Assembly: GCA_964650345.1 (NCBI GenBank)
Contig: CAZYSI010000002.1
Coordinates: 1-44,059 of the forward strand
Source: an uncultured Candidatus Saccharibacteria bacterium
GTDB taxonomy: Bacteria > Patescibacteriota > Doudnabacteria > UBA920
DNA: 44,059 bases
Direction: 5' to 3'
Shown here: positions 18,300 to 31,769 of the stretch, piece after piece
Position numbering within the stretch: the stretch's first letter is position 1
How the letters are laid out: each line of letters starts with the position of its first letter
The notes under the pieces: model-generated
Told to the model about the DNA's origin: nothing
Seen by the model: only the letters and a program-made list of their open reading frames with translations
The model's database searches: none
Translations under genes and position numbers: made by a program

Positions 18300-19610
18300 A
18301 TGGCAACATCACGAACCGACGTTGAAGCTGTTGTTGAGTTCTTTGATCCCAACAACAAAACCAAGTCAGATAAGAGCGGCAGAAATTACCCGCAGTATGG
18401 GTTTCTGTTCGTAATTGATGACGGGACTAGGATACCGATTCAAGACGAGGGTCTTGACGCGGCTATTAGTCCACAGCTCCGTAGAGATAATATCTTTACG
18501 GTGGATATTGTTGCTGATCCTACTAATCCCACAAGGGACAAAGTAAAAGCAACCAACTTTCGGTTTGTTAGAACCGAAGCCGGCGCTGCAGACAGCGCTA
18601 AGGCCAAATTCAAACCTGCCAAATCTGGTGCTCCTACACCTTCCTCAACAAAGGCCGACAAGGCCGATCCCAAACAAAATACTGAAGAGCTTTGGCGGCT
18701 CGAGGTAATGGGTGAACCAGTCGGAGGCGATAATAGCGGCGAATGGACAATATCCGTGGAGTTGGATAAAAACAACTACCCGGTACCAGACGCCAAGATC
18801 AAATTCCGTGCTGGATCGACAAGTTTCGTTGGGACGACCGGTCCCGAAGGCTGCATCGAACAGACCATAACTGTTTCAGATAATACGTATGGGCGGGTCG
18901 TTTACGACTCATCCCTGAGTATATCTGGAATACCGATTGCTGGACCAGATAAAGCTGTTGCCCCTAAGCGTAAGCTTACGGGTTGGCACTGGTTTAACAA
19001 TTTTTTGTATGGTTTTTGGACTGCTGTGCTTGTGCTTTCGATCATTCTGTGGGTACGGGCGGGTTATGTGGAGCTCACAACGCCTTACTCGCAGACCAAA
19101 TCGGTCAGCACAACACAGCAGGACAACGGCCGACCTAAGTTTTCTTGGGACAAGACTCAGCAACCTGCTCCAGAAACGGAGCAGGCAGCAGTAAGTTGGG
19201 GTGGTTACATTTGGAGCTGGACTCCAATGGGATCATTCCTCATTTTGCTACTCTGGTTCTTCCTTTGGATTATTTTGTTTCCGATTTGTTTCGGAGCGGA
19301 GATCTGGGAAGCTTTGCTGAATCAGTACCAAAAAAGCAAAGGCGCTATCGAGGCTTGGCGTCATACGCGTGAACCATTCCAGTATACCGTCGAGGTTATC
19401 CGGAATGGCGGCAAAATCGCTCAGAAACCGGTGTATATGTACAACGGCGAAAAAGTGAATAAGCCCGAGACGCGCTCGGAAGCGATGAGTTCGCTGAAGA
19501 ATATGAAATTCGGCGATATCAAAGAATTTATCAAGTTCGATTTGTTGTCGGATCTCGGCGTAATGCTATTCGACCGCTTCGTGCTTGGCAGACTATTTGG
19601 AGGAAGGTAA
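18300..19610 (+). CDS. Hypothetical two-TM membrane protein with N-terminal soluble domains (436 aa)
   Basis: AAGGAG lies 7-8 nt before the ATG. Soluble N-terminal ~230 aa with a Lys/Ala/Pro linker. TM helices FLYGFWTAVLVLSIILWV and FLILLLWFFLWIILFPICF. Confidence 0.7.
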   Translation: MATSRTDVEAVVEFFDPNNKTKSDKSGRNYPQYGFLFVIDDGTRIPIQDEGLDAAISPQLRRDNIFTVDIVADPTNPTRDKVKATNFRFVRTEAGAADSAKAKFKPAKSGAPTPSSTKADKADPKQNTEELWRLEVMGEPVGGDNSGEWTISVELDKNNYPVPDAKIKFRAGSTSFVGTTGPEGCIEQTITVSDNTYGRVVYDSSLSISGIPIAGPDKAVAPKRKLTGWHWFNNFLYGFWTAVLVLSIILWVRAGYVELTTPYSQTKSVSTTQQDNGRPKFSWDKTQQPAPETEQAAVSWGGYIWSWTPMGSFLILLLWFFLWIILFPICFGAEIWEALLNQYQKSKGAIEAWRHTREPFQYTVEVIRNGGKIAQKPVYMYNGEKVNKPETRSEAMSSLKNMKFGDIKEFIKFDLLSDLGVMLFDRFVLGRLFGGR

Positions 19611-19611
19611 C

Positions 19612-20661
19612 ATGGATACGTGGAAAAAAGTTGGAATCGCAGTGGTACTTCTGCTGCTGGTCGTTGTTGGTATTTTGATCTTCAAGGCCTTGGTCATGAA
19701 GTATTTCGATCTGACGCTGTCGTTGGTCTTTGTTTTGTCGGCATTCGTGCTGGCAGCGATCGCGCTAGCGTTCATTCACTTTTTTGCTCCTGAGAGCTCT
19801 CGCAGCTTTCTGACGAGTGGAGTTGTCGTGATGCTGGTTCTGTTCTGCGGGTGGTCAATCTATGCAGGCACTAGTCCAGTAGCGGCTAAAACCACGAAAA
19901 AAGGGATCGCGGCTCACTTTCTTAACTTCGCCAAAAATTTGTTGCCGGACAATTCAGCTAATGATGAGGTTACTCATCAGGCTGATATGGACTGCGACGA
20001 AGCAACTGCGGAGTTTCGCTATAATGTCGAGCAGAAATTGCTGGACAATTATAAGCAGGATGGCGATGTTGATAAGTACCTCCGTGCCCGAGCAGAATTG
20101 CAGGAGAAGTTGATGAAGAACACTGCTTTATGCAGTTCGGCATCACGTTCTTCGGTTACTCCTTCCTCGACGCCCGCGCCGGCGAGTACTCCCGCCTCAA
20201 CAACTTCTTCAACTAGCATGGTAGCAACTACGGGAACAACCAAAGTTTTCGTGGATGCTACTCGGTACAATGGAGTCGGGTCGGTTCAATTGATTTCTGG
20301 ACGAAAGTTCGAAATTAAAGGGACAGGCACGGCGGTGTGGAAAAATATTCCCGTAGGAAATCCGACAAAGTATGAATCTTGCGGTCCGGAAGGCACTTCG
20401 CCAACTGCATCGGTCAAGATGACCCGTGAGGAGTACTTCTCCAATATCGGGGACTACTTATGTCCTACGGCTCTCAAGGGTGCGCTCATTGCCAAAATTG
20501 GCAACGGGGCGTGGTTCCCGGTCGGAAAAAACTTTCAGGGGGTAGCCCAGAATGATGGGGTGCTGACTTTAGCGGTCAACGATCTTGATCCGCAAAAGCA
20601 GCCCACGTCGAACTGGGCAGACAATGGTGGTGGGTTCTCGGTGGCGGTCATCGTACACTGA
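19612..20661 (+). CDS. Membrane-anchored protein with C-terminal PA-IL (LecA)-like lectin domain
   Basis: I prefer the ATG at 19612 (GGAGGAAGG taa c ATG; SD at 19599-19603) over the 19585 ATG in the ORF track. Three N-terminal TM helices, then a Ser/Thr/Pro linker (SSVTPSSTPAPASTPASTTSSTS). The C-terminus reads CGPEG...GALIAKIGNG...GVLTLAVND...DNGGGFSVAVIV, resembling P. aeruginosa LecA as I recall it. Confidence 0.7.
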   Translation: MDTWKKVGIAVVLLLLVVVGILIFKALVMKYFDLTLSLVFVLSAFVLAAIALAFIHFFAPESSRSFLTSGVVVMLVLFCGWSIYAGTSPVAAKTTKKGIAAHFLNFAKNLLPDNSANDEVTHQADMDCDEATAEFRYNVEQKLLDNYKQDGDVDKYLRARAELQEKLMKNTALCSSASRSSVTPSSTPAPASTPASTTSSTSMVATTGTTKVFVDATRYNGVGSVQLISGRKFEIKGTGTAVWKNIPVGNPTKYESCGPEGTSPTASVKMTREEYFSNIGDYLCPTALKGALIAKIGNGAWFPVGKNFQGVAQNDGVLTLAVNDLDPQKQPTSNWADNGGGFSVAVIVH

Positions 20662-23221: not shown

Positions 23222-26200
23222 ATGTTGTTTCGCATAGGCGAGAGAAGTGGTTCTGATTTTGAAACAAAGCTAGATCCGGAGCGAAAACCGAGTGAAAATA
23301 TTAATGAGCTTGAGCAAACTAAAGCTGCTGAGGTTGATTTTGAAATAGGCAAAGAAGCAAAAGGTAAAGAAGGTATTAATGAACGTTTAGAAGAAGAATT
23401 GGGTGTCGTTGCAGAAAAAATTATTTCAAATAACGATGACTTAGAAAATTTAATAGAGAGTAATTTTTCAGACCGGTCACCAGAGGAAAAACAAAAAATT
23501 CTAGAACAACTGCAATCCGCAGCTGGCAAAGAAGAATTTAAGGGTCATGTTAAGGAGTTTTTGACTAAGTCCTTACCAAAAGATTTTACTGTAGGCGCTT
23601 TGGCTGGTTTCGCAGCTCCGCTAATAGCCAAGATAGCAGTTAAAAATTCAGCACGGGCTTTACTTGCTAGTAAAACATTTGGAGTGAGTGTGGCTGCTGG
23701 CGCGATCGCTAACGCTGTTGTTGAACCATTGAGACATTGGATTCGCAATAAAGAAAAAATTGTTGCAAAAGATATTGAATGGCAATTAGCAGCCGCTCAG
23801 TCGTCGGAGCAGCAAGCCGCTATTATCGCTCAGACCCAGAAAAGTTTGGAGGCAGGTCGGTTTCGTAAAGAGGACGAAGCTGGTGTTCGAGCACTATTGC
23901 AAGAACAGCTTGTAAAGGTACATTTAGAAACAAATAAAGAAGGTTTGGAAGGCAAGGATAAGGTTTTACAAATACTGGAAATTTCAAAATCTACCCGACG
24001 TGCTTTGTTTACGAAAGAGGGCAGGGCAGTGCGAAAGCTAATTAATAGCGTTGAGCTGCTTACTGAAAAAAATAAGGTTGGTTATAAGGAGCTAGCTTCA
24101 GCTTCACTTAAAGGCGCTCTTACTGGCGCTGTGGGGGGCGCTGTGGGGGGCGCACTTCATTATTTCCTTGTCGATGCCGGGTACGGCCAAAAAGCCGTCG
24201 ATGTTATCGGGGAGAAATTAAAGGCTGGTTGGTCTGTTTTGCGAAATATGAAAGGCAGTGGTGGCCCTGCGTTGGCATTTATTAACCCAACCTTAGCAAC
24301 TACTCTTTACGGGGAAGTAAGTAACTACGCTCCAGATGTTCCGGAGAAAGAAATTCCCGACGCTGTTAAGCAGGTCATTGCTAACAAAGCTGAGCAGTCT
24401 TTTACAACAGCACCACAAGGATTGTCGGAGATAAAGGACAAACTAGCAGAACAGGCGTTTTATTCTGATTTAGAGCAGGGTAATGGGGGAACGCATTTGG
24501 CTCGAAAAGCATTACATGATTACAGGGTTAATCTAATTAAATCCGGCGATCCTGATGCTGCAAATCTCTCTACTGAACAATTAATCTTCGCAGAAAATTG
24601 GTTTATTAAGCATAAGTTAGATAAATATGTTGAAGAAGGTGCGGATCATGCCTTTAAGCTAGGGGAGGAAGTAAAACCCTTTGATGGCGCAGATTTGAGA
24701 GAGGCAATTGAGGAAGCAAAAAAACTGAATGAGGAACAGCTAAAGAATTTGCACAAATATGTAGACAAGCTTTCTGAAAAAACCATTCACGAAATGCACG
24801 ATTTACAGAATTTTGAAAATGCAGCGAATGACTATACTAAAAACATTCAATCGCCGCAGCCAGATCAAAGTAATGTCGCACCGGGCACTAACCCTGCAAT
24901 AAGTCCAACACCTGAAAACTATGACAATTATCATCCAGACCCGTTAACCGATGAGGAGCGTAAAGCTATAAATGATTCGCAAGATCGTTTTCAAGAAGAT
25001 CAAGCTACTGGTGGTTCTGAGATAGATAAGCAGATTGAACAGTATTATGAGGACAACAAAGACACTGGTCTGAATGAATCAGAAAAAAATATTGAAAGCA
25101 TTAATTCTAAATTAATTGCAATTGCTAAACTAAATCTCATGGGAGGCATCTTGCTTGGTGGGGCTGCAGCAGGGTTTTATATGTTCAAGAAGTGGCAAAA
25201 AGAACGCCCTACTCCTGAGCAAAGTAGAGAGGCGATTGAACAGCTGCTACGCCAAAGAGAACTAGAGGTTGAGCTGGGAGAAGGCGTGACCGATAAAGAC
25301 ATACATAAGCAGTACAATAAATTAATTCGGGCCATAGAACAAGATTACGCTTATGGTGGTTTAGCAAATCTTGCCGGTAAAAAAATTGTATTAGAAAAAG
25401 CGCATAGTGCTAAGGAGCCCTGGGTAGATCATACTGACCCCGAGGTAATTCATTTACCTGTTTCTGTAAAACTTGATAAGTTAGAAAGGTTTATTAATCA
25501 GCTAGATGATGATGCAATCGATCAAGCTAAAGAGTTTTCAGAACGAAAATTATATGAAGCGGGTGATATTATGTTAGATTTGGAGGATGAGTTTCAAATA
25601 AGAATTAGGTTCATTAACAGAGGTCCGAATGGAGTAAGTTCACAACAATTAATTGACAACCTCGATCGATTCAGAAACGCTTTGCGTGACTTACCAGCAG
25701 AGGATTTGCACGGGACGAACTTCGTTCTAACTTATGCCTTAAATGAGCTCGATAAGTCAAGCGGAGATATCTACATAGATGTGGTAAGGCAAACCGATGA
25801 AGAACTATCAAAAGAACTAAGGCAGTTACTTGGGTTAGCCGAAAATATTGAATCTGGAAGTGGTGCTCCAATTTTGGCTGAGCCAGTTTTTGAAGACGAA
25901 CCAGAAGATGTTGATGAGCCTGACTCGTCTGGTATTGTAGAACCAGAAATTAATCCGGTCGAACAAGCTAGACAGGAGATTCAATCTGAATTCAATGAAA
26001 TAGAACGAAAGCATGGTATGAATATAGCTTTGGCTAATGATAAAACCGCAGAATTATTAATGCGCGACCGCAATTTAATGTTTAATTTGCAAGACGGCAT
26101 TGAAGATGCGAGTCGATTCTATCCAGGGATGTTTTATCCTTTCGAAGGTTTTAAAATAGTTCTTGATGATAAATGGGCTTTAGAAAAAGGGGTGCGCCAT

Positions 26201-27895
26201 ATTAACATAAAACAAGGTACACCAAAGCAAATTGCAGATTTTTTAGTTGACCCAGTGAGAGCATTGCGACGTAATAATGAGCCTGCAGCAAGTGGGGTTG
26301 ATAGCATTGAAGTGCGCAATATCGAAGGTAATGAATCAAATCGATTCTTCGAAGAGAATGAAGTTCAGATTCATGGCTCAGCCTATGAATTTAGTCCAGG
26401 TTCTTTTGCTAAACTTGAGGTTAAAGATTTAGTTGACGCAGGCTTAGAACCAAAGCATACAGTTGTTGTAGGAAGTACTGAGTTGAGAGTTTCTCAGCCT
26501 TATAATTTAGACAACGGTCGTCTGGCAGCGATGGTCTATGTGAAGCAAGGCGATGTTTATGTTCCTCGTTCCTATTACAAAAGTAATTCAGCTGTATCTT
26601 GGCGTTATTTGCCTACATATAGTAGAGAGTATGACCCTGAAACAGATCGTTACAATCGTCATTACGATAAAGGCTATGACGAGGATAGTTTAGATGCTAC
26701 TTGGGAAGTGCAAATGGCTTTAACTAAGATCGCAGCAGAACCGAATAATATTATCAATACTCCAAAGGATCCAGAATTCTATATGTTTGGGACATGTTGG
26801 GAGAAAGACAAAGATAATACTTATCAATTTTCGGTTGACGAGTTAGGTGAAACCTATAATGGTCAGTTTAAAGTACCTGAAAGTGATCGGCAGAAGCACG
26901 AAAATGTAGGCGGGTTTTTGGAATTTACTGGTGTGAATAAACTCGAGCCAGAAAAGGTTGGTTTTGCTAATCACGCTTTTAATCCGAACTTTGCTGAAGG
27001 TCCAATAGCGGAATGGCCTGACTATAGCCACATTTATGGTGCGATCACTAATAGGGTTTTTCAGAGTAAAAATAAGCAGCTTACTTATGTGATTCATGAA
27101 AGCGCAGAGGGAAAGGTGTGGATGAACATTCAGACTAATACTGAATTAACTCCAGTTGGTGTGAGGAAGAAGTGGTTTGATGGCGGAGACTTAACCTCAC
27201 CTGCGTATGAATACAAATATCCTAAGATTTCGAATAGTGGTGAATCTTATGTCTACGATCAAACTGGAGGTTATGGTGATGATTCCGATAGAAGAGGTAG
27301 TTATGTTGACATGTTTAAAAACTACAATAGCAAAATTCCTATTATTAAAGAGTATCGGGAATGGAGAAATAATCCACCCGCATCGCCACAGCCAGAGTTA
27401 GTTATTGAACCAGAGCCGGTTAAGCCTAAGCAAGCAGCTTCGTCTCCTCGAGATAGAACCCTGAAGCCAACTCCAGAAAGCCTTCGTAGCTACCCAATAG
27501 GTATTGATTCTGCGCCAGCAACTGAAGCCTGGGATCTCCTTCACTCGGAATCTAAAGAGAATCCATTTCGATCAAATATTGATGATGTTGTTCCACAGCT
27601 TAGCCAACTGGAAAATTGGGTTAATGAGCAAAGAGACTTCAGTGTAATTTACCCTGAATCTCCAATTGTAAAAGCATTTGAAATGCTGAACACGCTATTC
27701 GATTTTTATTCTGATGACGACCGAGCTCGTTCAACTGTTTCCTGGTTACGAGATACTATTAGACAGTTAAACCGCGTAAGTATGAGGCGAGCAGAAGAGC
27801 AAGCCAATGCTAATTTGGGTCGCGATAATTCAGAAGACCCAATTCCTAAAGTAAAGACCAATCGCTTAGAACGAAAACATGGTAAGAAGGAATAG
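23222..27895 (+). CDS. Giant multi-domain membrane protein (1557 aa), function unknown
   Basis: Uninterrupted 4.67-kb ORF. Hydrophobic Gly/Ala-rich segments: FTVGALAGFAAPLIAKIAV, GALTGAVGGAVGGALHYFLV, LMGGILLGGAAAGFYMF. Acidic coiled regions and an aromatic-rich C-terminal region of ~350 aa. No family motif recognised. Confidence 0.8.
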   Translation: MLFRIGERSGSDFETKLDPERKPSENINELEQTKAAEVDFEIGKEAKGKEGINERLEEELGVVAEKIISNNDDLENLIESNFSDRSPEEKQKILEQLQSAAGKEEFKGHVKEFLTKSLPKDFTVGALAGFAAPLIAKIAVKNSARALLASKTFGVSVAAGAIANAVVEPLRHWIRNKEKIVAKDIEWQLAAAQSSEQQAAIIAQTQKSLEAGRFRKEDEAGVRALLQEQLVKVHLETNKEGLEGKDKVLQILEISKSTRRALFTKEGRAVRKLINSVELLTEKNKVGYKELASASLKGALTGAVGGAVGGALHYFLVDAGYGQKAVDVIGEKLKAGWSVLRNMKGSGGPALAFINPTLATTLYGEVSNYAPDVPEKEIPDAVKQVIANKAEQSFTTAPQGLSEIKDKLAEQAFYSDLEQGNGGTHLARKALHDYRVNLIKSGDPDAANLSTEQLIFAENWFIKHKLDKYVEEGADHAFKLGEEVKPFDGADLREAIEEAKKLNEEQLKNLHKYVDKLSEKTIHEMHDLQNFENAANDYTKNIQSPQPDQSNVAPGTNPAISPTPENYDNYHPDPLTDEERKAINDSQDRFQEDQATGGSEIDKQIEQYYEDNKDTGLNESEKNIESINSKLIAIAKLNLMGGILLGGAAAGFYMFKKWQKERPTPEQSREAIEQLLRQRELEVELGEGVTDKDIHKQYNKLIRAIEQDYAYGGLANLAGKKIVLEKAHSAKEPWVDHTDPEVIHLPVSVKLDKLERFINQLDDDAIDQAKEFSERKLYEAGDIMLDLEDEFQIRIRFINRGPNGVSSQQLIDNLDRFRNALRDLPAEDLHGTNFVLTYALNELDKSSGDIYIDVVRQTDEELSKELRQLLGLAENIESGSGAPILAEPVFEDEPEDVDEPDSSGIVEPEINPVEQARQEIQSEFNEIERKHGMNIALANDKTAELLMRDRNLMFNLQDGIEDASRFYPGMFYPFEGFKIVLDDKWALEKGVRHINIKQGTPKQIADFLVDPVRALRRNNEPAASGVDSIEVRNIEGNESNRFFEENEVQIHGSAYEFSPGSFAKLEVKDLVDAGLEPKHTVVVGSTELRVSQPYNLDNGRLAAMVYVKQGDVYVPRSYYKSNSAVSWRYLPTYSREYDPETDRYNRHYDKGYDEDSLDATWEVQMALTKIAAEPNNIINTPKDPEFYMFGTCWEKDKDNTYQFSVDELGETYNGQFKVPESDRQKHENVGGFLEFTGVNKLEPEKVGFANHAFNPNFAEGPIAEWPDYSHIYGAITNRVFQSKNKQLTYVIHESAEGKVWMNIQTNTELTPVGVRKKWFDGGDLTSPAYEYKYPKISNSGESYVYDQTGGYGDDSDRRGSYVDMFKNYNSKIPIIKEYREWRNNPPASPQPELVIEPEPVKPKQAASSPRDRTLKPTPESLRSYPIGIDSAPATEAWDLLHSESKENPFRSNIDDVVPQLSQLENWVNEQRDFSVIYPESPIVKAFEMLNTLFDFYSDDDRARSTVSWLRDTIRQLNRVSMRRAEEQANANLGRDNSEDPIPKVKTNRLERKHGKKE

Positions 27896-27896
27896 G

Positions 27897-28211
27897 TTAA
27901 CGGCGATAGGAATCGTGGATAATTTTTAGTTCCTGTTCTATTGCTTCATCAATAGTTTTTAGTAGGCCAGGAACTTGAGAAGTGATATAAGAAATTTTTT
28001 CTTCTTTTTGTGGAGAGGGTAACTTTAGAGCGTCTTGATAATCTTCAGCTTGTTGTTCAGTTAATTGGGAAATCGTTACTTCAGTAATTAGGTTATCAAA
28101 GTGGCTGACAAGGGCTTTCACTGTTTCTGCTTTATCTTCATTAGATACGTTAATATCTAGAGCCGCTAAAAGCTCACGAGGGTTAATGTGTAGATTATTA
28201 ATCAAACTCAT
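27897..28211 (-). CDS. Hypothetical small acidic helical protein (104 aa)
   Basis: Convergent with the giant gene; the two stops are separated by 1 nt. A TGATATACT extended -10 lies 6 nt before its ATG. Confidence 0.55.
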   Translation of the reverse strand: MSLINNLHINPRELLAALDINVSNEDKAETVKALVSHFDNLITEVTISQLTEQQAEDYQDALKLPSPQKEEKISYITSQVPGLLKTIDEAIEQELKIIHDSYRR

Positions 28212-28217
28212 ATTTAA

Positions 28218-28226
28218 AGTATATCA
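28218..28226 (-). promoter_or_regulatory. Extended -10 (TGATATACT on minus strand), leaderless-type
   Basis: The minus strand reads ttGATATACTttaaatATG. The hexamer ends 6 nt before the start codon at 28211. Confidence 0.45.
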
Positions 28227-28241
28227 AAAGTTGTACTAAAC

Positions 28242-28272
28242 AAAAAAGCCCATATCAACAAATATGACATGG
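28242..28272 (-). terminator. Rho-independent terminator for the 28362-29396 gene
   Basis: Minus strand: CCATGTC-atatttgtt-GATATGG (7 bp including one G-U pair) followed by GCTTTTTTG. Confidence 0.65.
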
Positions 28273-28361
28273 AGACTTTTCGTTTAATTGTCTAATTCTT
28301 TTGCTATTTACTTTCCACCACTGTTTTACAGGGGCCAATTCCAATAGCATCTGAATTAAAT

Positions 28362-29396
28362 TCAGGTTATGGGTCCGCTCGGGGTCGGTGAGGTATTCGA
28401 ATTGCTCGAATTACTGTTCGTCGATCCGGACGGAGCCGCGGTATTGGAATTGCTGTTGCTGTTCTGCTGCTGCGAACTGGGATCAGGAGTCGGGCTAGGC
28501 GACGGCGTTGCCGCAGGAGCCTGGTTCGAACCTGGGTTTGTGTTCGCTGCAGGAGCAGTGGAATTGTCGGTGCCCTTGATCGTGACGGTAACGGCGACTT
28601 CGCACTTCGAGCCGCAATCTTTTGCAGCGTCGATCGTGGTGAACTTGATCGTAGCAGTGACATCCTGCGCATTCTTTTTCCCATTAAGCTTGGCAGTCAT
28701 GCGATTGGCAAGATCTGGGAAGGAGAGAAGCGCGTTCTGGGAATCGCTGGTGGCCTTGAGACGGGCAAGTATTGCATTACCGTCCTTGTCCTTGGCCTTA
28801 ATGACGATATTAGTTTCCACTGCAGTGTCGAGTTCGATGTTTGTGCTATCGGCCTCGAGACTGGCAACTTCCACCTTCTTCACTGTTACCTTGATGGCCT
28901 TGCGGAGCGCCGGGAATTCCTCGGACCCGATATAGAACGATCGAGTGCCGGGAAAGATCGAGTTAATGGTCAGCTTGTTGGTCTGCGCGTCGATCGAAGC
29001 GGTCGCAGTCTGCGACTTGCTGTAATCGGCGAGAAGCTTAGCGGTGAGCGAACTGTTATCGGCCTTTTTCAGGACGGACAGCTCTATCTCCAGCTGCTGA
29101 CCAGGGGTGGTTTCATATTCGTACTTGTCATCAGCGATGACAAACTTCGCCTCGGCCGTGTCGACTACCTCAGGCTTAGGAGCCGGGGGATTGTGTCGAC
29201 GAGCTGCTGCGGCTGTCTTCTTGACGCCGTTGCCATTGGCCTTTTTGGCGTGCTTCTTCTTGGCCTTCTTGGCCGAGTAGTTGTAAGCGGTCCGCGACGG
29301 GTTTATCGTCTGAGCCGACACCGAAAGGTGGCTTGCACACACGATGATACCGACGAAAAGTAACGAAATTATCGAAAGAATAGACAATCTTTTCAT
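28362..29396 (-). CDS. Secreted beta-rich (Ig-like repeat) protein with basic N-region and Ser/Asn/Pro-rich C-terminal tail
   Basis: Signal peptide MKRLSILSIISLLFVGIIVCASHLSVSAQ, then a Lys-rich stretch, two ~90-aa beta-strand-pattern modules, and the tail QQQNSNSNSNTAAPSGSTNSNSSNSNTSPTPSG. AGAGGAA lies before the ATG. G+C is markedly higher here: hand counts of two 60-nt lines gave 55% and 63%. Confidence 0.75.
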   Translation of the reverse strand: MKRLSILSIISLLFVGIIVCASHLSVSAQTINPSRTAYNYSAKKAKKKHAKKANGNGVKKTAAAARRHNPPAPKPEVVDTAEAKFVIADDKYEYETTPGQQLEIELSVLKKADNSSLTAKLLADYSKSQTATASIDAQTNKLTINSIFPGTRSFYIGSEEFPALRKAIKVTVKKVEVASLEADSTNIELDTAVETNIVIKAKDKDGNAILARLKATSDSQNALLSFPDLANRMTAKLNGKKNAQDVTATIKFTTIDAAKDCGSKCEVAVTVTIKGTDNSTAPAANTNPGSNQAPAATPSPSPTPDPSSQQQNSNSNSNTAAPSGSTNSNSSNSNTSPTPSGPIT

Positions 29397-29573
29397 GGTT
29401 TTCCTCTATTTGACTTAGAAATGTGCGGGTAGTCTGTATAGCGCTGGAACGCTGACCTTTTATCCCTTAAAGCTCCAGTTTCCGACAATTTTCTAGGATT
29501 TACTAGAAATTAGCTGAAACCAAAGCTCTAATGTAGTTTTATTTAATACAGTGCATATTTTAGCACATTTAGC

Positions 29574-29602
29574 TTGACTTGTCAAGTCTTTTGTGTTATA
29601 TT
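29574..29602 (+). promoter_or_regulatory. Sigma70-like promoter with palindrome over the -35
   Basis: TTGACT (29574-29579), 17 nt, TATATT (29597-29602). The palindrome CTTGAC-TT-GTCAAG (29573-29586) overlaps the -35. Confidence 0.6.
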
Positions 29603-29693
29603 AAATTGTTCTAAAAGCTGCATTTACTGTGATTTTTAGAGCAAAACAGTTAATTTTGTACATTTTCAACCTGTTCTGGAGGAACATTAGACT

Positions 29694-31769
29694 ATGAATA
29701 GTAACATCTTTTTAGCGCTTTTAGGTGTCTTTAACGTTTTAAGCCTTCTTATGCGACGGCGAGCGAAAAGCAAGCTGTCGCAGCGGGAGATCGACGCGTT
29801 GCTGACCAAATTTCCGCACCGGTCGGTAGACCAGTTGTTGTCGGCCGTTTATTCTTCACCAGTCGCTTTGGTTCGGTCACTGATCGACCATGCCGTTAAA
29901 TACAACGACGATTACACTGATGGTGATCGTGAGGCGGCAGTAGAGGTATTGTCCAAATTGTTCGTTAGTGTCGACTGGCAACCAAGAGTTTCTGGTTTGA
30001 CCGTAAAACGAATTTGGTCAGCAACCAAACAGCTAACCGAGTTGTCGGGAGCTGGCATTATCCTTGCTTTTGTCGTTTCGCTCATCGCTAATATTCTCGG
30101 GTATCTGTATTTTGAGAATTGGTGGATGTCCACCGTGGCGGTGACAGTTGGATACTTTGCTTTGGCTTCGTTTGTAGTTAGCGGTGTTCGCTACCTTTGG
30201 TCGCAGATGCCGTTGACTTCGCGTCTTGTAAAGGCGGGTCTAGTAATCGGCTTCCTTCTGTTTAGTTGGATGCCAATGATCATTTCTTATTTCTACCAAC
30301 CGGCAAGCGCGGTGGTTAATAAGGAACCTGGTATTATTGAGCAGGGAGCGATCGAGAAGCAGCTGGCGAAGATCTATGATCGTCCGCCAGTTCCTACTCG
30401 AGGAGTCCCAGCTTGGACTGCGATGGATATTAAGGTTGGCGCTAAGCGTCGATCTGAACTCAGCGCAGAACAGAAGACCTTGCGTGAATTATTGTTGGTA
30501 GACCAACTAACCTTTTCTTCTCTTAACACGACAGAAAAGGTAACTGGTTTCCAGCGTATGAAGAACTACACCACGCTCGTTTCGGCCTCCGTCGCCAATC
30601 TCTTAGTGCGCGATCCACAGGCTGGTAAGGACTTTGCTGAGCAAACAGGTTTACAACCCGAAAACCTGGCTGACTACTTCCTGGCAATTTTAGGGAAGGA
30701 GTCATCTTGGTCAAACGATTGTGAATCGGGGACCGGTCCGGTATGTCCCGCAGGTATTTCTATTGCCTTGGGGGAAGACGAGGGTTTGGTGAAGGGAAAT
30801 CAGGATCTTCGAAAGGTTCCGGAACATGCTATACCGATGATGGTTGAGTATGCTTATGGTAATTACCAAAAGCTTAATCGTCGTTGGGATCTGGCTGCTC
30901 TGGGTTATCATACTGGGCGTAGTCGCGCCTTAGGTTTGGTAAAGATTGCCCAAGAAGAGAATTTGCAATGGAAGACCTACATGGATATCTACTTTGCAGA
31001 TCCTGATAAATATCCACAAACCTGGGCTAAGGTCCAGGAAATCCATTCCAAGGACTTCGGTGATACCTACTGGCCTGGCATCATTCGCTATATGGAGCTT
31101 ATTTCTGTGTTTCGCACAGATGAAGAAGCTTTCCAAGAAATTGCGAAAGCGCAGCTCAGGAGGGTTGATGGTCGAAACATTGCCCCTAAGTACAAGTTCC
31201 ATACATTCTTTGACGAGAGCCTGTTGAATTTCGAGGGCATCGGTATGTTGAAGGACTTGAACGACTTGAAAGCTGCGGCTGCTAAAGGTTTGCTTGTAAC
31301 TGCACCGAACCATAACTCGATTAATTACCGCACAGCGGATGATCGAGGGATTGGTGCGAACGACAAGGCAAACGGTCTCGAGTACAAACGGTTAAGGCCT
31401 TTGGGTATTGGCGGTTTGTGGGCTGTGGGAACCTTGGTTGGTCGGCTTGATTCGCAGCAACGTCTGGACCTAACTTCCATGATTCGCACGGATGAGTACC
31501 AGAAAAAAGCGAATACTCGTGAGGATGTGGCTGTCCCAACTCATTTGTCGGGGTTGGTATTCGACATCTCGATGAAGGATATGAAGGATGACGATCCTGA
31601 ATACATCCGCATTGCATTCGCTCTCAATGAACTTGAGAATTACGGATGTGTAAGCTGGATGCCGGAAGGGAAAGCGTATCGAGCTTTCCATGTCGTCATT
31701 AATCCTTATCAGAAACAGTGCGTGGAGATGTTTATGAACAACTACCATGTTAGTGGTGCGGTCGGCTAA
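29694..31769 (+). CDS. Membrane-anchored putative cell-wall hydrolase: lytic-transglycosylase-like plus M15 (VanY-like) peptidase-like motifs
   Basis: GGAGG lies 11 nt before the ATG. The N-terminal ~200 aa contain several TM helices. LAILGKESSW (Glu codon 30699-30701) and AALGYHTG resemble SLT motifs I and III. SMIRTDEYQ, PTHLSGLVFD (31542-31565) and AYRAFHVV resemble the SxxR...Q / HxxGxxxD / xxH pattern of M15 peptidases. Confidence 0.6.
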   Translation: MNSNIFLALLGVFNVLSLLMRRRAKSKLSQREIDALLTKFPHRSVDQLLSAVYSSPVALVRSLIDHAVKYNDDYTDGDREAAVEVLSKLFVSVDWQPRVSGLTVKRIWSATKQLTELSGAGIILAFVVSLIANILGYLYFENWWMSTVAVTVGYFALASFVVSGVRYLWSQMPLTSRLVKAGLVIGFLLFSWMPMIISYFYQPASAVVNKEPGIIEQGAIEKQLAKIYDRPPVPTRGVPAWTAMDIKVGAKRRSELSAEQKTLRELLLVDQLTFSSLNTTEKVTGFQRMKNYTTLVSASVANLLVRDPQAGKDFAEQTGLQPENLADYFLAILGKESSWSNDCESGTGPVCPAGISIALGEDEGLVKGNQDLRKVPEHAIPMMVEYAYGNYQKLNRRWDLAALGYHTGRSRALGLVKIAQEENLQWKTYMDIYFADPDKYPQTWAKVQEIHSKDFGDTYWPGIIRYMELISVFRTDEEAFQEIAKAQLRRVDGRNIAPKYKFHTFFDESLLNFEGIGMLKDLNDLKAAAAKGLLVTAPNHNSINYRTADDRGIGANDKANGLEYKRLRPLGIGGLWAVGTLVGRLDSQQRLDLTSMIRTDEYQKKANTREDVAVPTHLSGLVFDISMKDMKDDDPEYIRIAFALNELENYGCVSWMPEGKAYRAFHVVINPYQKQCVEMFMNNYHVSGAVG

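Follow-up and report, generated by a model that had tools for sequence, protein, structure and literature searches.

A variable slot between core genes of a Patescibacteria genome carries a G+C-rich gene for a putatively exported protein with two immunoglobulin-like domains

The gene described here lies in a stretch of 44,059 nucleotides (hereafter, the window) on contig C2 of G000, a metagenome-assembled genome (MAG) of an uncultured member of the Patescibacteria (807 kb in 63 contigs, G+C content 0.412). The gene, termed P0001, is an open reading frame (ORF) at positions 28362-29396 of the minus strand, which was recognized from the ORF listing, its homologues and an AlphaFold model, and which encodes a predicted secreted protein of 344 residues with two immunoglobulin-like (Ig-like) domains. 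It is part of a module of four genes within a contig of 46.5 kb, with core genes on either side. The other members are a giant membrane protein of 1557 residues (23222-27895, plus strand), a protein of 104 residues (27897-28211, minus strand) and, divergent from P0001, a membrane-anchored wall hydrolase of 691 residues (29694-31769, plus strand) in which a domain search detected an SLT domain. A preliminary description, made from the sequence alone, had singled out P0001 as the best candidate in the window for the recent horizontal acquisition of a surface or secreted factor.

The composition of the gene is indeed exceptional. In 60-bp windows the G+C content reaches 0.55 at positions 28440-28499 and 0.63 at 28500-28559, which reproduces the values of 55% and 63% counted earlier by hand. 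The G+C-rich block (about 28380-29340) matches the extent of the ORF and drops on both sides to 0.25-0.35, the first 19 or so codons (29340-29396) being A+T-rich. Over the whole ORF the G+C content is 0.540 (z = 4.6 relative to the genome mean, using equal-sized windows of 1035 bp, only 0.19% of which are as G+C-rich), and the G+C content at third codon positions (GC3) is 0.652, compared to a mean of 0.376 (standard deviation 0.067), placing the gene third among 818 ORFs. Synonymous codon usage, scored as a synonymous-codon likelihood in which amino-acid content is controlled for, is the most atypical of 597 genes (z = -12.8): the shares of AAG, CAG, TCG and ATC are 85%, 100%, 45% and 57%, respectively, versus 33%, 36%, 9% and 17% in the genome. 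P0001 thus displays both the atypical G+C content and the atypical codon usage that are taken as signs of horizontal acquisition, and the outlier status proposed earlier for the window holds genome-wide. The adjacent SLT gene likewise deviates (GC3 0.51, codon z = -6.2) and is preceded by a GGAGG Shine-Dalgarno (SD) sequence. The ORFs that overlap P0001 on both strands (e.g., 28369-28935 on the plus strand and 28367-28684 on the minus strand) are read as spurious, as had been suggested.

The further claim that this G+C content is far above anything else sampled in the window stands only in part: P0001 is the strongest G+C-rich gene in the window, but not the sole one, as the segment 18300-20700 reaches 0.48-0.53. 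This segment contains a two-gene unit (18300-20661) for a protein of 436 residues and a lectin-like protein of 358 residues, with GC3 of 0.50-0.55 and codon z values of -7.6 and -8.3; the 436-residue gene is without a match in the sampled 154-kb contig of a sister genome, G010. In addition, an ORF of 246 residues (1258-1998) directly upstream of the ribosomal-protein operon exhibits a GC3 of 0.51 and a perfect AGGAGG, and has no match on the syntenic G010 contig.

The modular composition of the P0001 protein bears out the features that had been read from its translation. Residues 1-28 (29313-29396, minus strand, as are all the following segments) form a signal peptide on the basis of inspection, hydropathy and family conservation. 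The n-region MKR, the hydrophobic core LSILSIISLLFVGIIV and the site SVSA↓Q are those expected for Sec export and cleavage by signal peptidase I; the pattern A-x-A↓QT at the cleavage site is kept in all five members of the family described below, and the IIVC of P0001 does not qualify as a lipobox. The mature protein begins with the family-invariant motif QTxxPSxxAxNY (residues 29-40; 29277-29312), modelled by AlphaFold as a short, confident strand, with a predicted local distance difference test (pLDDT) value of 89 for residues 31-40. This is followed by a Lys/Arg-rich basic linker of low model confidence (residues 41-75; 29172-29276), which includes the poly-Lys stretch KKAKKKHAKK, by two Ig-like β-sandwich modules (approximately residues 76-175 and 176-275; 28872-29171 and 28572-28871, respectively) assigned by AlphaFold and Foldseek, and by a low-complexity tail rich in Ser, Asn, Pro and Thr, with the SNSNSN/PTPS sequences noted previously (residues 276-344; 28365-28571). 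The tail contains neither a sorting signal nor a transmembrane segment. The Lys- and Asn-rich amino-acid usage of the protein, in which Lys accounts for 0.80 of Lys plus Arg, K/(K+R), is a family trait.

Modelled alone, P0001 gave a poor structure (pLDDT 44). With an alignment of the five family members, AlphaFold produced two tandem β-sandwiches (pLDDT 79 overall and about 90 for residues 76-275, predicted TM-score 0.70), which supports the fold type of the two β-rich modules proposed from the sequence. Foldseek matched the model to the Big_2 domains of LigA, to invasin/intimin (probability 1.00 for these two groups) and to SbsC, SbsB, Sap and EA1 from S-layers, all at E = 1e-7 to 1e-8, as well as to BIG2 decoration domains of phages. 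Differences in the angle between the domains keep the TM-scores of the whole model low (0.25-0.3). Pfam, PHROGs and NCBIfam assign no family to P0001; the Pfam Ig families (Big_2 PF02368, Big_1, invasin/intimin) have no match at E ≤ 1 in any of the five members; and the family profile matched no Protein Data Bank (PDB) chain by sequence. Since neither hidden Markov models (HMMs) nor PDB sequences recognize it while its model matches Ig-like folds, the family represents a new sequence family on a known fold. The sequence signal for an internal duplication of the two modules is weak (z = 2.4).

Searching 1.84 billion cluster representatives exhaustively with phmmer revealed four full-length homologues of 342-371 residues (E = 6.6e-43 to 3.6e-12), which are 31-40% identical to P0001 in the alignment. 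All are located on metagenome contigs (L007, L008, L009 and L010), and all share with P0001 the same plan of signal peptide with A-x-A↓Q, QTxxPSxxAxNY motif, K/R-rich linker, two modules and P/T/S-rich tail. Word-index protein searches with P0001 returned only the query, or the query and one further protein (P0005), because the low-complexity tail swamps the list of candidates. The five-member alignment is too variable for the design of peptide patterns, and peptide-pattern scans of genome and metagenome contigs yielded nothing for P0001 or for the alignment of the SLT proteins. A high-GC contig (L026) from a metagenome scan with the promoter pattern proved unrelated and was taken as a chance match. 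No member turned up in 24 genomes of the same genus, nor did the family profile detect one among 145 further genomes of this order or 400 representatives of the phylum. P0001 is therefore absent from its close relatives, and the family, as far as these searches reach, appears to be very small and is seen in five uncultivated lineages.

The surroundings of the homologues are informative. Flanking DNA was available for L008, L009 and L010, L007 being too short to show neighbours. In each of the three, the homologue divergently adjoins a large SLT-domain gene; L009 and L010 also contain a gene of about 105 residues and a giant membrane protein, and L009, the sole contig of the three on which core genes are present, additionally carries GtrA, DnaX and RuvX, as in the window. 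The DnaX of L009 is 54% identical to that of the window, within the same-genus range of 50-68%, and L009 is, by this marker, a related Patescibacteria lineage. Some differences in arrangement are evident. With respect to the Ig gene, the giant gene of L009 (11270-15124) is inverted when compared with that of the window, and L008 has no giant gene between its Ig gene and a GT-C-like membrane gene. Since the giant gene is flipped in one lineage and missing in another, the module is, by this comparison, rearranged as well as diverged.

When compared by tblastn with the sister genomes, core and module genes behave in opposite ways. The core genes of the flanks are highly similar in G010 (SecY 85%, VirD4-like ATPase 88%, a 201-residue protein 84%, DnaX 66%), whereas the four genes of the module (23222-31769) have either no match or faint matches in the sisters. 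Their best matches are found in L010 (49% for the giant protein, over 316 residues; 46% for the 104-residue protein; 30% for P0001; and 31% for the SLT protein) and in L009. The sister G003 possesses the same four-gene architecture at only 26-29% identity (26% for the giant and 29% for the 104-residue protein), but the slot is filled by P0006, a protein unrelated to the P0001 family. In G010, which lacks a match to the giant protein, a single unrelated secreted protein (P0007) is situated between both conserved flanks. Comparison of P0006 and P0007 with the P0001 family by hhalign found no homology. The two slot proteins (L012:7007-7954 in G003 and L011:3901-4836 in G010, the two closest relatives) nevertheless begin with a signal peptide, which in one of them contains SAQT, and continue with a K/R-rich linker, while their bodies are unrelated and a transmembrane helix stands at the C-terminus. 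The slot seems to be reserved for exported proteins with a basic linker.

The regulatory signals of P0001 are conserved along with the module. The SD-like sequence AGAGGAA (29401-29407, minus strand; GAGG at 29403-29406) is positioned 6 nt before the ATG, and an SD is present in all five family members, most of whose neighbouring genes are devoid of one. The promoter of P0001 (29557-29585, minus strand) consists of TTGACA, a 17-nt spacer with TG, and TAAAAT, matching the consensus in 11 of 12 positions; that of the SLT gene (29574-29602, plus strand) consists of TTGACT, a 17-nt spacer and TATATT (10 of 12), with invariant extended -10 columns. The two promoters overlap back-to-back within 29557-29602, each -35 box being followed by an extended -10 at 17 nt, and the -35 boxes of both, TTGACA for the Ig gene and TTGACT on the other strand for the SLT gene, are contained in the 14-nt inverted repeat CTTGACAAGTCAAG (29573-29586). 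This repeat is identical in all five family loci, unique in the genome, and absent at the sister loci that lack the P0001 family. Downstream of the gene, a hairpin of 9 bp with a loop of 7 (28273-28249) and a T-run form an intrinsic-terminator-like element (28239-28273, minus strand). The SD and the terminator of the preliminary description are thus both in place, and P0001, as an autonomous promoter-ORF-terminator unit, is a real gene that would be expressed autonomously. Judging from its promoter, SD and leader signals, its expression is probably strong.

The 5' leader of P0001 is about 154 nt long (29397-29550, minus strand; 128-154 nt across the family), and RNAalifold predicts for the family leaders a long 5'-proximal stem-loop (about 29468-29531 in the window) and a small second hairpin (about 29440-29453). 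Pairing amounts to 82.4%, compared to 74.2% in shuffled alignments, and the covariation score is 0.317, compared to 0.20; in both cases none of 500 shuffles scored as high. In nine of the 30 pairs, both positions have changed without loss of pairing. Pairing drops to 63% and 53% when the partners are slid by one column, and the window leader itself folds with z = -2.0. With five sequences, the evidence for a conserved leader structure is suggestive. Rfam has no match in 28000-29800. The small conserved hairpin of the leader has its complement on the plus strand (29439-29454), where it forms a terminator-like hairpin inside the leader region.

P0001 is not an isolated case within its genome, as it belongs to a class of G+C-rich genes that are led by SD sequences. 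An SD of at least 5 nt precedes 52% of the genes with GC3 of at least 0.50, versus 5-8% of those with GC3 below 0.45, and the same coupling is seen in the 154-kb sample of G010. A promoter match of at least 10 of 12 within 200 nt occurs in 63% of the high-GC3 genes versus 12% (p = 3e-9), an enrichment that is partly confounded by the many low-GC3 genes internal to operons. An N-terminal hydrophobic segment is found in 48% versus 29% (p = 0.05). The 16S rRNA gene was not found in the G000 MAG; the 16S rRNAs of the same genus retain the anti-SD CACCUCCU. P0001 exhibits all the features of the class, i.e., high GC3, an SD, its own promoter and terminator, and a variable slot between core genes. 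When the other high-GC3 genes are pooled, the shift in their codon usage correlates with that of P0001 (r = 0.86), and P0001 fits the pooled model (-1.17) on a par with the members of the class. Despite the small genome, ARAGORN detected 37 tRNAs, among them tRNA-Ile(UAU) and several isoacceptors with C34, and tRNAs that directly read the favoured codons are encoded (Lys-CUU, Gln-CUG, Glu-CUC, Ser-CGA, Thr-CGU, Ile-GAU and Val-GAC). Literature searches found no published description of such a G+C-rich, SD-led class in Patescibacteria.

The composition of the class is retained between sister genomes. The lectin-like gene of the window has a GC3 of 0.55 in G000 and 0.51 in G010, at 58% amino-acid identity and a same-codon fraction of 0.39 (saturated), and a gene on contig C18 has a GC3 of 0.66 and 0.63, respectively. 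Since class genes hold their GC3 in sister orthologues, composition does not serve as a clock in this genome: it is not a reliable sign of recency and cannot date an acquisition. The C18 gene (17621-18613) is the gene of highest GC3 in the genome, and its orthologue (G010 C3:145236-146225) is 82% identical with a same-codon fraction of 0.71, where core genes whose proteins are equally similar reach about 0.50; this pair reflects either a more recent exchange between lineages or constraint on synonymous sites. Outside the window, two further SD-led, signal-peptide proteins of high GC3 (C7:17071-17895, 0.54; C8:20187-20756, 0.59) have no Pfam match; their C-termini, ...GLSLSF and ...ALKYSF, are reminiscent of the signature with which outer-membrane β-barrels end, an odd trait in a lineage generally assumed to be without an outer membrane.

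The mosaic of core genes that resemble those of the sisters and a module that resembles those of L010 and L009, together with the shared promoter, argues for a lineage-specific variant module and, therefore, not for a foreign factor. We consider it somewhat better than even (a probability of roughly 55%) that P0001 is part of a swappable, hypervariable surface module, exchanged or replaced among related Patescibacteria rather than imported from a foreign phylum, and that its composition is the extreme of a persistent class. Wherever flanking DNA was available, the Ig gene has the same place in the four-gene module (giant, ~105-residue, Ig and SLT) between core genes, the module being incomplete in L008, and the sister slots contain unrelated or extremely diverged versions; the module, or its Ig-SLT half, would have been exchanged or replaced by recombination among related lineages. 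The protein itself would be exported by Sec and cut at SVSA↓Q to yield a mature envelope protein of about 32 kDa comprising the QTxxPSxxAxNY motif, the Lys-rich linker, the two Ig-like domains and the disordered S/N/P/T tail. The basic linker may hold it non-covalently on anionic wall polymers, such that the Ig domains could be displayed at the surface. From its fold and context, P0001 may thus act as an adhesin or as a coat partner of the divergent, membrane-anchored SLT/peptidase wall hydrolase at the surface or host interface. The overlapping promoters might couple or balance the expression of the two genes, and the 5' stem-loop might stabilize the P0001 mRNA.

Several observations weigh against the exchange of such a module among relatives. 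The GC3 of P0001 is 0.27 above that of its genome, while for the homologues the excess is only about 0.08-0.10 (L009 and L010) or absent (L008), and a codon model of the L009 type describes P0001 better (-1.24) than does that of its own genome (-1.39). Given this excess over the excess of the homologues, input from a lineage of higher G+C content stays plausible; the data allow such input from a higher-G+C relative, and neither require nor date it. No donor or close homologue was found (none above ~40% identity), so that replacement is indistinguishable from very fast divergence in situ. The mosaic is drawn from tblastn identities, the leader structure comes from five sequences and from the same alignment on which it was tested, and the function is read from fold and context.

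The first of these points also bears on the proposal of the preliminary description in its strict form, i.e., recent acquisition of P0001 alone, or of the Ig-SLT pair, from a donor of clearly higher G+C content, with the composition still unameliorated. We regard this as unlikely, although it accounts directly for the first rank of the gene among codon outliers, the large GC3 excess, the better fit to the L009-type model, the lack of the gene in all sister genomes and the atypical codon usage of the adjacent SLT gene, and the lean of the high-GC3 class as a whole towards G+C-rich amino acids (K/(K+R) 0.51 versus 0.63) is in line with it. Against this, the K/(K+R) of P0001 itself is of the opposite type, a high GC3 is retained by the sister orthologues of other genes in the class, and no donor emerged among 15 billion proteins. 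Signs of mobility are lacking as well: there is no tRNA in the window and no integrase, direct repeats of the att type around P0001 occur at chance level only, and PHROGs contains no match for P0001, the 104-residue or the giant protein, and only a weak endolysin-domain match for the SLT gene. The homologues, moreover, occupy the same slot beside an SLT gene, with the same promoter and leader, and one of them resides in a lineage related by DnaX, which argues against a foreign donor. The strong compositional deviation and the lack of an orthologue in the 145 genomes of the order thus survive from that proposal; a foreign source is not supported, and composition by itself does not show recency.

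A broader interpretation of the class, which we offer tentatively and with limited expectation, is that the genome operates two expression regimes: an A+T-rich core devoid of SD sequences, and a selectively maintained minority with near-consensus sigma-70 promoters, structured leaders, SD sequences and G+C-ending codons matched to C34/G34 tRNAs, of which the Ig/SLT pair, a swappable host-surface determinant, would be the extreme. If so, the pair would set which host surface the bacterium attaches to and breaches. Patescibacteria are mostly uncultured and attached to other microbes, and the basis of their partner specificity is largely unknown; in this regard, the locus provides a concrete and testable candidate. 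The direct orthologue test, in which atypical G+C content and codons mark a persistent class and not a recent import, bears on composition-based scans for transfer in the phylum, and the invariant bidirectional promoter and the conserved leader represent compact regulatory parts.

Purely vertical descent, in which the slot gene would have diverged to the extreme under diversifying selection while its codons, SD, promoter and leader were kept for high expression through C34/G34 tRNAs, appears distinctly improbable. The retention of SD, promoter and leader across five lineages at 31-40% protein identity would be expected under such descent, as would the presence of the matching tRNAs, the persistence of the GC3 of the class in sister orthologues and the conserved architecture in G003, and in L009 and L010 the family member is the gene of highest GC3 on its contig. 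In L008, however, the GC3 of the homologue is not above that of its flanks, and the ribosomal-protein genes have a GC3 of 0.36, which indicates that there is no general expression-linked G+C bias. The module genes are also closer to L010 than to the sisters, the opposite of the core genes, and hhalign relates neither sister slot protein to the family. An artefact, whether a chimeric assembly, contamination of the bin or a chance ORF in non-coding DNA of high G+C content, can be set aside as very improbable, for although the MAG is in 63 contigs, the G+C block coincides with a single ORF and G+C-rich DNA yields long chance ORFs, P0001 is embedded between core genes, the same gene order recurs in independent NCBI and JGI assemblies (L009 and L010) and the pair with the SLT homologue in a Logan contig (L008), full-length homologues and a confident fold exist for the P0001 frame only, and the shared promoter and leader extend into the A+T-rich flank.

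Among known systems, the morons of phages resemble P0001 in having their own promoter, SD and terminator, an atypical G+C content and a place between conserved genes. Unlike a moron, P0001 is located outside a prophage, with chromosomal core genes as flanks and without a PHROG match, integrase or att repeats, and it is tied to its SLT partner by the shared bidirectional promoter and to a fixed chromosomal slot. With respect to the class as a whole, the Bacteroidota offer a parallel: their translation is SD-independent, and a few genes stay SD-led. Here, too, most genes are devoid of an SD, the anti-SD of the 16S rRNA is retained and a minority is SD-led; this minority, however, is also G+C-rich at synonymous sites and equipped with promoters, and its members are for the most part accessory or secreted. 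To our knowledge, no mechanism such as sequestration of the anti-SD has been shown in Patescibacteria.

Like P0001, the Big_2-type adhesins, e.g., LigA of Leptospira (PDB 8gyr), InvD/InvE of Yersinia and FdeC of E. coli, are secreted or surface proteins with consecutive Ig-like β-sandwiches (best Foldseek E = 3.6e-8). The P0001 family differs from them in having no Big_1 or Big_2 HMM match and two domains only; P0001 is without an LPXTG, autotransporter or lipobox anchor, and instead has the N-terminal motif, the Lys-rich linker and the S/N/P/T tail. With the S-layer proteins SbsC, SbsB, Sap and EA1 (PDB 4uid, 4aq1, 9g93 and 8opr), P0001 has tandem Ig-like domains in common. Surface layers have been reported in Patescibacteria. 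P0001 is, however, much smaller than these S-layer proteins (about 32 kDa when mature), lattice formation would be conjectural, and its family is far too rare to provide the general coat protein of the group. In place of an SLH, CWB2 or other known wall-binding Pfam domain, its Lys-rich linker could bind anionic polymers. S-layer genes typically combine a strong promoter with a 5' leader that is long and structured, and in this the P0001 gene is similar.

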